Below are positions 29,257-36,164 of a stretch of 38,068 bases of DNA, one piece after another. Origin of the DNA: Escherichia coli. GTDB lineage: Bacteria > Pseudomonadota > Gammaproteobacteria > Enterobacterales > Enterobacteriaceae. The position numbers were made by a program, and so were the translations under genes. The stretch lies in the NCBI RefSeq assembly GCF_003334385.1, contig NZ_QOWN01000042.1; one strand, 5' to 3'. Numbering within the stretch: the stretch's first letter is position 1; every line of letters begins with the position of its first letter. The notes below the pieces were generated by a model that saw nothing but the letters and a program-made list of their open reading frames with translations, did not search any database and was not told the origin of the DNA.

Positions 29257-29284
29257 ATGCTCTGGATAAGGATTATCCAATTCT

Positions 29285-29316
29285 AAAAAAAAAAGCCCGG
29301 ACGACTGTTCGGGCTT
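29285..29316. terminator. Bidirectional intrinsic terminator shared by ydbK (+) and micC (−): A-run, agcccgg/ccgggct hairpin, T-run
   Basis: Hairpin with flanking A10 and T5 runs read directly. Confidence 0.75.
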
Positions 29317-29396
29317 GTCTTTTTATATGTTGGAAAATCAGTGGCAATGCAATGGCCCAACAGAAAATAAAATCTGTGACAATAAAGGCATATAAC
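29287..29396 (-). ncRNA. micC: MicC small regulatory RNA (Hfq-dependent repressor of ompC translation)
   Basis: Minus strand reads GTTATATGCCTTTATTGTCACAGATTTTATTTTCTGTTGGGCCATTGCATTGCCACTGATTTTCCAACATATAAAAAGACAAGCCCGAACAGTCGTCCGGGCTTTTTTTTT, matching the MicC sequence as I recall it; located between ydbK and ompN as described for micC. Confidence 0.85.
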
Positions 29397-29623
29397 CCGC
29401 GCAGAATAACGTATAGCAAATTAAAAGTATAATTTTTATTTTGTATGTATTATCTTCGATACATTCACCAGACTTATTATCATTTCAGAGGAATTATTTG
29501 ATTAAGGTTTTACTTAAGGCGTAACAAATGATATTTATCGGCTAACTGAACTTCTCCTTTAGGATGTTTTCACTCCCCGAAATGGGGATAAAAGGCAAAT
29601 AAAATAACTAAAGGATTTATTCA

Positions 29624-30816: not shown

Positions 30817-31332
<516 letters not shown>

Positions 31333-31339
31333 CACTAAC

Positions 31340-31364
31340 GCCCGCACATTGCTGCGGGCTTTTT
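31340..31364 (+). terminator. Rho-independent terminator after uspF (gcccgca / tgcgggc stem, T5)
   Basis: Hairpin plus T-run 8 bp after the stop. Confidence 0.7.
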
Positions 31365-31660
31365 GATTCATTTCGCAAATGTGCTGACATTTTCCCCTCT
31401 AATCCGTACCATACACGCCACAGTTTTTTATATCAGATTTCTTATGCTGGGCGTTCCGGCATGACGCATACTCTTCTGATGCCATATAACGAATTGAGTC
31501 GCTTTTAAATGTCGCAAAATCAAGAAATTAGTAAGAAAGAACAATACAACCTGAACAAGTAAGGGCAAAAATCACAACTCTCTGACTCATAAGTATTTTA
31601 CTTATTTTTCAATGTGTTAAATATCATCAGCGACAACAATAAGCTACGATAACCCACTCT

Positions 31661-31710
31661 TTTTTTGCCCCTTTTTTGCCCCTTTTGCAGCGCTTTGCCC
31701 CATTTTTGCC
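31661..31710. repeat. Degenerate ~11-bp tandem repeat (TTTTTTGCCCC ×2, then TTTTGCAGCGC, TTTGCCCCA, TTTTTGCC) in the uspF–sitA intergenic region
   Basis: Read directly. Confidence 0.6.
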
Positions 31711-31822
31711 ATCAACAATTTTCCTCATCAAGTCATTTCAAAGCCTAATAGGTACCCTACTTTTTTCCTCAGTACCACGTCGCCAGCAGGAAACAACCTA
31801 ATCCCGGTTCGGATCTAAAATT

Positions 31823-31841
31823 GCTAATGATAATCATTTTC
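31823..31841. promoter_or_regulatory. Fur box (gCTAATGATAATCATTtTC; 17/19 match to GATAATGATAATCATTATC) in the sitA promoter
   Basis: Match to the canonical Fur consensus ~80 bp upstream of sitA. Confidence 0.7.
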
Positions 31842-31863
31842 ATTTTGTGTTGCTTATGCTATA

Positions 31864-31885
31864 AAACATAGCCGTTGCTATGTTT
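31864..31885. promoter_or_regulatory. MntR operator: perfect palindrome AAACATAGC-cgtt-GCTATGTTT between the Fur box and the sitA start
   Basis: Matches the MntR box palindrome described for mntH/sitA promoters (from memory). Confidence 0.7.
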
Positions 31886-31917
31886 GTTCTAATTTTGCTC
31901 ACTATAGGTACTAAATT

Positions 31918-32832
31918 ATGTACTCAATAAAAAAAGTAACCATGCTCTTGGGGTGCCTCGCCCTCACCTGCTCGATCGCATTTCAGGCGAGTGCAACTGA
32001 AAAATTCAAGGTCATTACAACATTTACCATCATCGCAGATATGGCCAAAAACGTGGCTGGAGATGCTGCAGAAGTCTCATCCATAACCAAGCCCGGTGCA
32101 GAAATTCATGAGTATCAGCCTACCCCTGGCGATATTAAACGTGCGCAGGGGGCACAACTGATTCTCGCCAATGGTATGAATCTGGAATTGTGGTTCCAAC
32201 GCTTTTACCAGCATCTTAATGGGGTTCCAGAAGTAATTGTCTCTTCGGGTGTGACGCCAGTAGGGATCACTGAAGGCCCCTATGAGGGCAAACCTAACCC
32301 CCATGCCTGGATGTCGCCAGATAATGCTCTGATTTACGTCGATAATATTCGTGATGCGTTGATAAAATACGATCCGGCAAATGCACAAACCTACCAACGT
32401 AATGCCGATACTTATAAAGCCAAGATTACCCAAACCCTTGCCCCCCTGCGTAAGCAGATTGCTGAACTCCCTGAGAATCAGCGATGGATGGTCACCAGTG
32501 AAGGGGCTTTTTCTTATCTCGCACGCGATTTGGGGCTAAAAGAGCTTTATCTGTGGCCGATTAATGCCGATCAACAAGGCACGCCGCAGCAGGTACGTAA
32601 GGTTGTTGATATGGTGAAGAAAAATCATATCCCGGCAGTCTTTAGCGAGAGTACGATTTCCGATAAACCAGCGCGTCAGGTTGCGCGTGAAACCGGCGCG
32701 CACTACGGCGGTGTACTCTATGTCGATTCCCTGAGCACAGAAAACGGCCCGGTACCTACGTATATCGACCTTCTGAAGGTTACTACCAGTACGCTGGTAC
32801 AGGGAATTAAAGCCGGGAAAAGGGAGAAATAA
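31918..32832 (+). CDS. sitA: Periplasmic Mn2+/Fe2+-binding protein of an ABC importer (cluster A-I substrate-binding protein)
   Basis: 304-aa ORF with signal peptide; first of four translationally coupled genes in SBP–ATPase–permease–permease order. Confidence 0.85.
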
Positions 32833-33659
32833 TGATGCAATCTGCGGGCATTGTCGTTAATGATGTTACTGTCACCTGGCGTAACGGGCACACAGCACTG
32901 CGCGATGCATCCTTCACAGTACCAAGTGGATCTATTGCCGCTCTGGTTGGGGTAAACGGTTCCGGAAAATCGACGTTGTTTAAAGCGATTATGGGATTTG
33001 TGCGTCTGACCAGCGGAAAGATATCTGTTCTGGGTATTCCCACGCGACAGGCGCTACAGAAAAACCTGGTTGCCTACGTCCCTCAGTCAGAAGAGGTTGA
33101 CTGGTCATTTCCTGTACTAGTGGAAGATGTGGTGATGATGGGCCGCTATGGGCACATGGGTATGTTGCGTATAGCCAAAAAGAGGGATCGTCAGATTGTC
33201 ACCGATGCGCTGGAACGTGTCGATATGGTGGATTTTCGCCATCGACAAATCGGCGAGCTTTCCGGTGGACAAAAGAAACGCGTCTTTCTGGCGAGAGCGA
33301 TTGCACAGCAGGGTGATGTGATCCTGCTGGATGAACCTTTTACCGGCGTTGATGTGAAAACCGAAGCGAAAATCATCAGCCTGTTGAGGGAGTTACGCGC
33401 GGAAGGCAAGACGATGCTTGTCTCAACGCACAATCTCGGCTCAGTCACGACATTTTGCGATTATACGGTCATGGTCAAAGGCACCGTCCTGGCAAGCGGG
33501 CCGACAGACACCACTTTTACAGCCGAGAACCTGGAGCTGGCTTTTAGCGGCGTACTGCGCCATGTCACACTTAACGGCTCGGAAGAAAGCATTATTACTG
33601 ACGATGAACACCCTTTTGTGGCACATCGACCGTCAGCGGTGCAGAGGGAAGCAAGATGA
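32832..33659 (+). CDS. sitB: ABC transporter ATP-binding protein (Walker [10 protein letters not shown], signature LSGGQKKR, Walker B ILLDEP)
   Basis: 275-aa ORF; motifs read directly. Confidence 0.85.
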
Positions 33660-34513
33660 ACGTGCTACTGGAACCCTTCAGCTATGAATATATGCTCAAT
33701 GCGATGTGGGTCTCGGCGATGGTCGGCGGTCTCTGCGCTTTCCTGTCATGCTATCTGATGCTAAAAGGCTGGTCGCTGATTGGCGATGCGCTGTCGCACT
33801 CTATTGTCCCGGGTGTTGCGGGGGCATATATGCTGGGGCTTCCGTTTTCTCTGGGAGCCTTCTTTTCCGGCGGACTGGCAGCGGGCAGCATGCTGTTTCT
33901 TAACCAACGCACTCGCTTAAAAGAAGATGCCATCATCGGCCTGATCTTCTCCTCCTTTTTTGGCCTGGGGCTGTTTATGGTGTCATTGAACCCGACATCC
34001 GTGAACATTCAGACCATCGTCCTGGGCAATATTCTGGCAATCGATCCGGCGGATATCCTGCAACTCACTATCATTGGCATTCTCTCGATCATCGTGCTTT
34101 TTTTCAAATGGAAAGATCTTATGGTGACCTTTTTCGACGAGAATCACGCCCGTGCTATTGGATTGCATCCGGGCAGATTAAAAATCCTCTTCTTCACCCT
34201 GCTGTCAGTTTCGACCGTTGCGGCGCTGCAAACGGTTGGTGCCTTTCTGGTGATCTGTCTGGTGGTGACTCCCGGTGCAACAGCATGGTTGTTAACCGAT
34301 CGTTTTCCCCGCCTGCTCATAATTGCTGTAACTATTGGCAGTGTAACCAGTTTCCTCGGCGCGTGGGTCAGTTACTTTCTGGACGGCGCGACAGGTGGAA
34401 TCATCGTGGTGGCGCAGACACTGCTGTTTCTTTTAGCATTTGTATTTGCGCCCACCCATGGGCTTTTGGCAAATCGTCGGCGTGCGCATAAAGCGCTGGA
34501 GGATCGCTCATGA
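33656..34513 (+). CDS. sitC: ABC transporter permease (Mn/Fe importer)
   Basis: 285-aa hydrophobic multi-helix ORF; ATGA overlap with sitB. Confidence 0.85.
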
Positions 34514-35367
34514 TGGCATTATTACTGGAGCCACTGCAGTTCACCTTTATGAGTCACGCACTGCTGATTTCACTGGTAGTTTCCATACCCTGTGCGCTGC
34601 TGTCGGTCTTTCTGGTCCTGAAAGGTTGGGCACTGATGGGTGACGCGATGAGTCATGCGGTTTTTCCTGGTATTGTGCTTGCCTGGATTCTGAGGTTACC
34701 TCTGGCTACAGGGGCATTCGTCGCCGGAGTATTCTGCGCGGTGGCGACGGGATACCTGAAAGACAACAGCCGAATCAAGCAAGATACAGTGATGGGGATT
34801 GTTTTTTCTGGCATGTTTGCCGCAGGTCTGATCTTGTATATTGCAGTCAAACCAGACGTACATCTTGACCATATTCTTTTCGGCGACATGCTCGGGGTAA
34901 CCATCGGCGATATAATCCAGACGGTGATTATTGCCGGGCTGGTTACACTTGTTATTAGCGTAAAATGGCGGGATTTTTTGCTGTTCAGCTTTGATTATCA
35001 ACAGGCGCAGGTAAGCGGTTTGCATACGAGATGTCTGCATTATGGGCTGCTGTGCATGGTCTCTCTGACCATTGTGGCGACGCTGAAAGCGGTAGGTATC
35101 ATTCTCTCCATTTCTCTGCTCATTGCGCCTGGCGCCATTGCGGTACTCCTGACACAACGCTTTCATATTGCGCTCCTACTGGCGATTGGCATATCGGTAA
35201 TAGTGTCAATGACTGGTGTCTGGTTGTCCTTTTTTATCGACAGTGCACCAGCTCCGACGATTGTCGTCTTATTCGCGGTTGTGTTCATCATGACGTTCAC
35301 CGTTACCAGCATCAACGCACGCACAAAGGGAAACACCCATACACAGGATTTGTCATCACCCAATTAG
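34510..35367 (+). CDS. sitD: ABC transporter permease (Mn/Fe importer), paralogous to SitC
   Basis: 285-aa hydrophobic ORF; ATGA overlap with sitC. Confidence 0.85.
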   Translation: MMALLLEPLQFTFMSHALLISLVVSIPCALLSVFLVLKGWALMGDAMSHAVFPGIVLAWILRLPLATGAFVAGVFCAVATGYLKDNSRIKQDTVMGIVFSGMFAAGLILYIAVKPDVHLDHILFGDMLGVTIGDIIQTVIIAGLVTLVISVKWRDFLLFSFDYQQAQVSGLHTRCLHYGLLCMVSLTIVATLKAVGIILSISLLIAPGAIAVLLTQRFHIALLLAIGISVIVSMTGVWLSFFIDSAPAPTIVVLFAVVFIMTFTVTSINARTKGNTHTQDLSSPN

Positions 35368-35531
35368 CACAACATCCGAGGACAGCATCGTCCGCTGGCC
35401 CACAGAAGTCCGGAAAGTCATGGAAGGTCGTTGTTGGGAGGAGGTACAAATTCTCTCATGCAAAAAATACGTAAAATCGATAATAGCTGGAAATAATTCA
35501 ATACATGCACTCTCGAAAGTGCATCAGCCAA

Positions 35532-35565
35532 CCGCAGAACGTTATTGCATACAACGTTTCTGCGG
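35532..35565. other. Imperfect inverted repeat (ccgcagaacgtt ... aacgtttctgcgg) in the short sitD–tfa spacer; possible terminator or junction element
   Basis: Read directly; no clear U-tract. Confidence 0.3.
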
Positions 35566-35579
35566 CATAATCCCAATGA

Positions 35580-36164
35580 TTACTCCCTGACAGGGTTCGT
35601 AGGCCACTCAATATCAGGTGCAGTTGATGTATCAACACGGTTCAGCAACACCCGATACTTTTTCCAGGCTTCCAGCAACAAGGTTTCTTCCTCCGTTGCG
35701 ATTTCCAGATCTGCAGCATCCTGAAGCGGCGCAATATGCTCACTGGCTACCTGCATCAGGCTGTTTTTTGTTTCTTCCGCCTCCCGGATCCGGAACAGTT
35801 TTTCTGCTTCTGCATCTTTCACCCAGGCTGTGCCGTTCCACTTCTGAAACTCCCCTTCCGGGGATAACCAGGTAACATTTTCCGGTAACGGACCGAGTTC
35901 AGAAATAAATAACGCGTCGCCGGAAGCCACGTCATAGACGGTTTTTCCCCGATGATCTTCAACGAGATGCCACGATGCCTCATCACTGTTGAAAACAGCC
36001 ACGAAGCCTGCCGGAATATCTGGTGGTGCAATATCGGTACTGTTTGCTGGCAGACCTGTATGAGGCGGAATATATGCATCACCTTCACCAATAAATTCAT
36101 TAGTTCCGGCCAGCAGATTATAAATTTTTATGGTCCGTGCTTGTTCACTCATTCTGAATGCCAT
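35580..36164 (-). CDS. tfa: Phage tail fibre assembly (chaperone) protein, Tfa family (TfaR-like)
   Basis: 194-aa [27 protein letters not shown]..., closely resembling lambdoid Tfa proteins as I recall them; ATG overlaps the stf stop (TAATG). Confidence 0.8.

Follow-up and report, generated by a model that had tools for sequence, protein, structure and literature searches.

What function is served by a short, imperfect tandem repeat lying between a chromosomal gene and the sitABCD transport genes of Escherichia coli? The window analysed here is a stretch of 38,068 nucleotides (contig NZ_QOWN01000042.1), in which positions 31661-31710 of the spacer between uspF and sitA read TTTTTTGCCCC TTTTTTGCCCC TTTTGCAGCGC TTTGCCCCA TTTTTGCC. 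An earlier note, made from the window alone, had described a unit present twice in tandem and followed by three decayed copies, with which the sequence agrees exactly, and had proposed that the tract might be a recombination scar, the remnant of a decayed attachment site or a slippage-prone element affecting sitA. We conclude that the tract probably represents a distal group of arm-type sites that the N-terminal domain of IntR recognises, IntR being the integrase of a Rac-like, sitABCD-carrying prophage that integrates in ttcA. The evidence in hand comprises the position of the tract, its conservation, the domains found in IntR, variation in copy number and the sharing of its motif between two arms and among three att systems.

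Anatomy of the repeat tract

Tandem Repeats Finder reported two overlapping arrays with a period of 11 bp, a perfect array at 31661-31686 (2.4 copies, 100% match, score 52) and a longer one at 31662-31710 (4.8 copies, 72% match). The exact 11-bp unit occurs twice in the 38-kb window, both times inside the tract, and when both strands were searched for TTTGCCCC all of its copies (3/3) fell there as well; three TTGCCCC within 50 bp were seen in 0/200 first-order Markov simulations of the window. The conserved elements, TGCCCC at 31666, 31677 and 31696 and TGCCAT at 31707, form two 11-bp-phased pairs that are 30 bp apart (Table 1). The three trailing copies stand as the note had given them in sequence but not as equal units, since the third, TTTTGCAGCGC, is poorly conserved and resembles a spacer. 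Neither a hairpin nor a terminator was predicted at the tract (DNA folding -1.8 kcal/mol, z = +0.8), and a promoter scan placed no promoter-like site over it.

A 34-aa open reading frame, MMRKIVDGKNGAKRCKRGKKGAKKEWVIVAYCCR, crosses the repeat on the - strand (window 31627-31731), and some RefSeq genomes list it as a 'hypothetical protein' (WP_001614539.1 of strain EC2 is one instance). Since insertion or deletion of the 11-bp unit shifts its frame, the call is almost certainly spurious.

Table 1. Features of the uspF-sitA region, in window coordinates, with the int-side fragment.
Feature	Position	Strand	Sequence, basis or remark
uspF, last chromosomal gene ahead of the prophage	30898..31332	+	ORF list; RefSeq annotation of near-identical loci; start inferred from the 435-bp RefSeq gene
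ttcA chromosomal 5' remnant ('ttcC')	31509..31562	+	encodes MSQNQEISKKEQYNLNK*; sequence and genomes without the prophage
att core region	31533..31558	.	26-bp block AAGAAAGAACAATACAACCTGAACAA, identical at both prophage ends
int-distal attP arm (lambda-style 'P arm'; here part of attR)	31559..31712	+	common to Rac-like prophages with unrelated cargo
candidate IHF site	31607..31619	+	TTTCAATGTGTTA, 1 mismatch to WATCAANNNNTTR (scan); T-rich tract before it; between core and repeats
arm-type site 1 (predicted)	31664..31672	+	TTTGCCCCT, within first perfect 11-bp unit
arm-type site 2 (predicted)	31675..31683	+	TTTGCCCCT, 11 bp from site 1
variable spacer from unit TTTTGCAGCGC	31684..31693	+	least conserved part of the tract; not a site
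arm-type site 3 (predicted)	31694..31702	+	TTTGCCCCA; TTTGTCCCA in diverged arms
degenerate site 4 (predicted)	31705..31712	+	TTTGCCAT, 11 bp from site 3
Fur box, sitA promoter region	31823..31841	+	GCTAATGATAATCATTTTC, 2 mismatches (pattern search); shared with plasmid sit loci
sitABCD cargo	31918..35367	+	ORFs; SCU-104 annotation; between att arm and prophage tail-fibre genes
int-side fragment			TTGCAAAGTTTGCCCCCAATTTGCCCCATTT

Position of the tract at a prophage end

Searching the uspF-sitA spacer against 5,426 complete E. coli genomes divided it into three modules. One, 31333-31558, is chromosomal and runs into an intact ttcA in genomes free of the insertion; chromosomal homology stops at 31558, and the chromosome/prophage junction is 31558/31559. 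The module that follows, from 31559 to approximately 31711-31715, is found in K-12 strains also, where it forms the right end of the Rac prophage, and K-12 Rac matches 31333-31711/31715 only. The note's suspicion that the spacer holds an island junction was well founded and indeed there are two, the one just given and another at ~31705-31712, where the phage arm meets the sit module. Across 31559-35667 the window is 99.98% identical to SCU-104, whose Rac-like lambdoid prophage of ~51 kb runs from ttcA-intR-xisR through the tail-fibre genes and sitABCD to uspF; the int end of the prophage lies outside the window. The SCU-104 prophage (L096) also carries the iteA/iteS anti-phage genes and trkG, and its intR, recE and ydaV are annotated as frameshifted or with internal stops, which may represent decay or assembly error.

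The 5' end of ttcA was severed when the prophage integrated, and its remnant at the Rac end has been described as 'ttcC' (Liu et al. 2015, PMC4632033). Identity between the prophage ends spans the 26-bp core block and narrows to ATACAACCTGAACAA (31544-31558) in some lineages; judged by this identity, the crossover falls within 31533-31558. The int-side core reads AAGAAAGAGATATACAACCTGAACAA in Rac-SA53, 2013C-3277 and L134 (loci L006, L093 and L134), and the uspF-side core of Rac-SA53 reads ...GAACAATACAAC...; the two ends of Rac-SA53 thus differ in the core, so that identity there is only 15 bp (ATACAACCTGAACAA), a narrower crossover zone.

Beyond the core, the phage-derived arm extends for 154 bp (31559-31712), and the tract makes up its last ~50 bp, 103-154 bp from the core. 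Hence, the proposal of a decayed attachment-site remnant was right in placing the tract at an attachment site, in one of its arms, but the arm belongs to an intact attR and not to a decayed one. Similarity of the tract itself to an att site or a tRNA, which the note had also raised, was not borne out, the identity of the prophage ends being at 31533-31558 rather than at the tract. A role for the tract as att core or tRNA-derived remnant was accordingly rejected: the core is in ttcA, 100 bp upstream, the tract matches no Rfam family and the window contains no tRNA.

Two further observations concern this side of the window. The MicC sRNA gene, a known feature, lies upstream of ompN at 29279-29399 on the - strand (Rfam RF00121, 122 bits). 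The record ON032529.1 ('Salmonella phage SPF_0923'; L004) has an arm 100% identical to that of the window and includes chromosomal nifJ, ompN and uspF; it looks like a mis-delimited prophage region of E. coli type and not a packaged phage genome.

Conservation of the arm

Ten uspF-side arms were aligned, among them K-12 Rac, Rac-SA53, four further arms of sit type and three from diverged prophages with different cargo, and homology among all ten ends directly after the fifth unit. In the three arms that have diverged most, identity to the window is 87-89% in the tract and 67-70% in the 99 bp separating it from the core, and falls to 33-37% past the tract, where the arm comparison gave 33-43%. 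The second unit contributes TTTTTGCCCC, invariant in 10/10 arms, and the invariant or near-invariant columns of the tract are TTTTTGCCCC, TTTG.CCCA and TTTTTGC(C)A. The spacer at 31684..31693 varies among the aligned arms (GCAGCGC, ACAGCGT, GCAGCAC, ACGGCCT, GCGGCCT), and the variant of site 3 found in diverged arms, TTTGTCCCA, is also present in the site pairs of related phages. The recombination scar of the earlier note is rejected, the tract being better conserved in diverged prophages than any other part of the arm.

Candidate sites for integration host factor (IHF) lie between core and repeats. On the uspF side, the block TTTTTCAA....TTA is kept in diverged Rac arms, and the otherwise unrelated arm of phage 933W has TTTCAATCTGTTA at a matching distance from its core, the common form being TATTTTTCAAT(G/C)TGTTA. 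Between the motif pair described below and the core, the int side has a perfect IHF consensus, AATCAACAAATTA, which coincides with the in vivo IHF peak at attL of Kasho et al. 2021 (PMC8407004); no peak was reported at attR in that profiling.

The int-proximal arm and contiguous attP molecules

In both K-12 and the sit-type strain SCU-104, the stop codon of intR is followed at once by TTGCAAAG TTTGCCCCCAA TTTGCCCCATTT, a pair that shares the motif TG(C/T)CCC(A), the strand and the 11-bp spacing of the tract, and ~25 bp beyond it, again in both, lie a ttcA start supplied by the phage and the common core AAGAAAGAACAATACAACCTGAACAA. Measured from the core, the Rac motifs stand at -76 and -65 on one side and at +122, +133 and +152 on the other, all on one strand. 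The same pair is found in four ttcA-site integrases that are 63-71% identical to IntR, among which the int-ttcA intergenic DNA has diverged but TTG.CC and TGCCCC.TT are invariant and have kept their positions; Klebsiella phage 2 LV-2017 has the pair too, as does an Stx1 phage.

The two motif clusters are united on one molecule in the IMG/VR contigs L045 and L105, from a non-sit element, and in the sit-carrying L103. The last of these (IMGVR_UViG_3300039370_000009) is a 50.5-kb metagenomic contig of a sit-bearing Rac-like element with a contiguous attP, in the order int stop, motif pair, core, tract and sitA upstream region, and its identity to the window is 98.5% through the arm and sitABCD. 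This suggests that the sit-bearing element of L103 still excises or circularises, or else forms tandem lysogens. Most IMG/VR loci found with IntR end exactly at the int stop codon, and the informative ones are L045, L103, L134, L153, L167, L176 and L188. A DNA search of the phage collection returned two records only, both of them prophage excerpts with host flanks; ON470595, considered as a free attP, was rejected, since it too is a prophage excerpt. The annotated frameshift in intR of SCU-104 could be a sequencing error, and many sit-type or Rac-like prophages may be defective.

Related integrases and their attachment sites

IntR has an N-terminal arm-DNA-binding domain, and the IntR/933W/Qin integrases form a family with Arm-DNA-bind_2 (PF12167) within the IntBPP-1 subgroup, of which the examples given in a 2021 survey (the integrases of BPP-1, Stx2a and Gifsy-2 phages) are still called 'putative'. 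The integrases of phage 933W, which uses the wrbA site, and of the ydfJ-site (Qin-like) phage are each ~43% identical to IntR and have the arm-binding domain in common with it. The layout on two arms was checked in three systems, namely Rac, 933W and the ydfJ site; in the others it was the int-side pair alone. For 933W, the motifs lie at -82 and -71 (GTGCCCCAGAC GTGCCCCAAAG, at the 3' end of int) and at +136, +147, +167, +178, +198 and +209, the distal arm having six TGCCCCAA motifs, and for the ydfJ-site phage at -68 and -57 (TTTGCCCCAAC CATGCCCCATAA) and at +139, +150 and +161 (ATGTCCCATAT ATGCCCCACAG ATACCCCGCAG); in each case all motifs are on one strand. The right end of 933W (AF125520, L101 863-942) contains a 31-bp tandem duplication (ACAACCACATTTTGCCCCAATAGTGCCCCAA...) that produces the six TGCCCCAA motifs, a further expansion in the copy number of putative arm sites.

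The int-side pair lies past the stop codon in IntR and inside the coding tail of int in 933W and the ydfJ-site phage, and in the 933W tail its two motifs are in different reading frames, because 11 is not a multiple of 3. Both circumstances indicate selection on a DNA motif rather than on a peptide, although the coding context in these paralogues could add to the conservation of the pair there. The distal arm of the ydfJ site adjoins ydfJ in many genomes and comes directly behind int in O157 strains. At L095 2001-2420 (E. coli strain 9000, O157:H7) the integrase gene is followed by core and int-distal arm and then by a dinI-like gene, an attP-like junction within a chromosome; the order of int and arm here and in O157 probably reflects tandem prophages. 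The annotated DinI-like CDS begins within the repeat motifs, and its start codon is therefore doubtful.

No published account of the arm sites of 933W or the ydfJ-site phage was found, and the searchable literature, in which few subscription-journal papers were available, held no description of an arm-site consensus for IntR, 933W Int, the Gifsy integrases or the PF12167 family; the literature searched gave no binding or mutational data for IntR.

Copy number of the 11-bp unit

The earlier note had called the tract slippage-prone and had proposed a comparison of copy number across strains, and alleles of one, two and three units bear this out. Two units is the common state and is found in most sit-type genomes. 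The sit-type strain LR-64-2 (L007) is without exactly one 11-bp unit, and a single unit is seen on a second background in the non-sit arm of IMG/VR contig L102; the count of one-copy alleles is a lower bound, the BLAST count being confounded by three-copy genomes that are reported as two joined pieces. A synthetic three-unit query gave perfect 132/132 matches, and the allele was verified by reading in EC2. Three-unit genomes number ~20 among ~465 of sit type, as counted with a four-unit query (exactly 20 full-length matches with one 11-nt gap), and the same four-unit query had no perfect match in the 5,426 genomes. Variation in unit number is confined to the perfect duplicated unit. A range of 1 to 3 copies means that there is no strict constraint on how many distal sites an arm carries, a point against the arm-site reading proposed below.

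The sit module and its junction with the arm

Homology between the window and plasmid sit loci begins at TTTGCCAT (query 373-584, corresponding to window 31705-31916), with ~84% identity from ~31705 on; upstream of this point the plasmid loci consist of unrelated DNA and IS1. In the plasmid locus at L097 1380-1725, IS1 stands ~140 bp upstream in place of the arm. K-12 Rac aligns up to TTTTTGCCA. Taken together, the plasmid homology from TTTGCCAT and the Rac homology up to TTTTTGCCA indicate that sit was joined to the arm at a microhomology of 7-8 bp at ~31705-31712, which coincides with the degenerate fourth site. This fits a situation in which cargo would be tolerated only outside the functional att arm.

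The Fur box, which the note had put ~110 bp downstream of the tract, was matched 113 bp downstream and, going by the alignments, belongs to the sit module and not to the att arm. At window 31864-31885, after the Fur box and before sitA begins, there is a perfect palindrome, AAACATAGCCGTTGCTATGTTT, which appears terminator-like in the scan; we take it to resemble an MntR operator. The sit genes are under manganese and iron control, which an MntR operator would fit. Far from this locus, at 836-854, the palindromic triplet repeat GATGATGATGATCATCATC fits the pattern of a Fur box on either strand, with 3 mismatches; it is probably coding sequence, and the match a coincidence.

Interpretation and alternatives

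From the comparisons above we infer that IntR binds at the tract, that recombination may require this binding, and that IHF may bind on the int-distal arm; that the motif is assigned to Int and not to some other protein is likewise by comparative anatomy. IntR would then act as a hetero-bivalent integrase, a scheme of which a general description is available (PMC2951348): its domains for catalysis and core binding would work at the ttcA core (31533-31558), and its N-terminal AP2-like domain would dock on TG(C/T)CCC(A). Docking would take place at 11-bp-phased pairs ~120-165 bp from the core on the int-distal arm and, on the int-proximal arm, at one pair ~65-76 bp away from it, and IHF-type bends between arm sites and core would fold the arms back so that arm-bound integrase could reach the core. 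The intasome would be assembled for integration (attP x attB) or, with XisR, for excision (attL x attR), XisR biasing the reaction towards the latter. Since sites 1 and 2 are exact 11-bp copies in tandem, one site could be gained or lost by slippage during replication, giving the one-, two- and three-unit alleles. We regard it as unlikely that such slippage serves as a heritable rheostat of excision and integration, and with it of the stability and spread of sitABCD, or, in a second version, that tract-bound Int couples sit expression to the state of the prophage.

Were the tract a neutral, slippage-prone simple repeat without sequence-specific function, the existence of one-, two- and three-unit alleles, the appearance of the one-copy allele on two backgrounds and the absence of predicted secondary structure would all be expected. 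This is quite unlikely, given that diverged prophages conserve the tract better than the rest of the arm, that homology ends exactly at its edge, that motif and phasing recur on the other arm and in the unrelated att sites of one integrase family, and that variation is limited to the perfect duplicated unit. A purely architectural reading, in which the phased T-tracts constitute intrinsically bent DNA or a nucleoid-protein site that the integrase does not read, draws on T5-T7 runs spaced 11 bp apart, close to the helical repeat; however, the conserved core of the motif is TG(C/T)CCC and not the T-run, and the related sites of 933W and the ydfJ-site phage and the int-side pairs lack T-tracts yet keep TGCCCCA, which makes such a reading highly improbable.

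The repeats might instead be sites for the XisR excisionase (recombination directionality factor, RDF), in the manner of the tandem X1/X1.5/X2 of the lambda P arm. Lambda Xis binds the int-distal arm, which is where the present tandem direct repeats are found. In the electrophoretic mobility shift assays (EMSA) of Liu et al. 2015 (PMC4632033), XisR shifted a 294-bp AttR fragment, in keeping with this possibility, but did not shift the 291-bp AttM fragment; with the published primers mapped onto K-12, AttM corresponds to L002 3227-3517 and includes the entire tract near its centre, which argues against the tract as an excisionase site. Furthermore, the motif is present on the int-proximal arm in every system examined, as is typical of Int arm sites and not of an RDF, and we consider XisR sites very unlikely. 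Least probable of all is a part in controlling the sitABCD promoter, as a regulatory element upstream of it or a phase-variable one. The tract would be suitably placed for this, with the start codon of sitA 236 bp and the Fur box 113 bp downstream of it, and it varies in unit number. Rac prophages without sit genes nevertheless have the tract, plasmid sit loci retain the Fur box and the promoter region but have no more than the terminal TTTGCCAT in common with the tract, and no promoter-like site overlaps the repeat; no link was seen to the effect on sitA that the note had envisaged.

Read as IntR arm-type sites, the tract supplies a testable consensus, TG(C/T)CCC(A) in 11-bp-phased pairs, and an attP map for the IntR/933W/Qin family, which moves the sitABCD cargo for iron/manganese uptake as well as Rac-like prophages and Shiga-toxin phages. 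It would delimit the functional att site on the uspF side to 154 bp ending at 31712, with sit inserted exactly at the outer edge of the arm, and the natural alleles with one, two and three sites offer a handle on how arm-site number relates to excision. For annotation, a conserved intergenic repeat is explained and a spurious 'hypothetical protein' across it is exposed.

Comparison with known systems

The arm sites of lambda attP (P1, P2 and P'1-P'3) are short direct repeats that lie outside the core on both arms, as in Rac. In both, one tandem cluster adjoins int and the other is >100 bp from the core, IHF sites (candidates in the case of Rac) lie between, and the integrase has a separate N-terminal arm-binding domain. 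The Rac consensus, TG(C/T)CCC(A) in 11-bp-phased pairs, differs from that of the lambda arms, however, and IntR carries a domain of the Arm-DNA-bind_2/IntBPP-1 subgroup rather than of the lambda Int N-domain family. The Rac core, moreover, is within protein-coding ttcA, the 5' end of which is replaced by the phage, and the Rac arm sites are predicted. Closer to hand in K-12 is the cryptic prophage KplE1 (CPS-53), where arm-type sites of IntS have been mapped beside int and shown to matter (PMC2951348). The arm and TorI sites of KplE1 attL belong with another integrase family and have a TAAA-containing consensus; they overlap the int promoter, in autoregulation, whereas the int-side pair of Rac is downstream of int and upstream of ttcA.

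The att sites of 933W and the ydfJ-site phage correspond to Rac in integrase family, motif, strand, 11-bp phasing and the combination of a pair at the 3' end of int with a distal cluster (136-209 and 139-161 bp from the core, respectively), and differ from it in their cores and target genes. A perfect tandem unit with one to three copies between strains is reminiscent of simple-sequence contingency repeats, but the tract has very few units, is outside any promoter spacer or open reading frame and has no phenotype linked to it; its variation in copy number looks like a by-product of two identical, adjacent, predicted binding sites. Arm-type sites are a textbook feature of lambdoid attachment, and the tract is most likely an ordinary, so far unannotated, part of the integration machinery.
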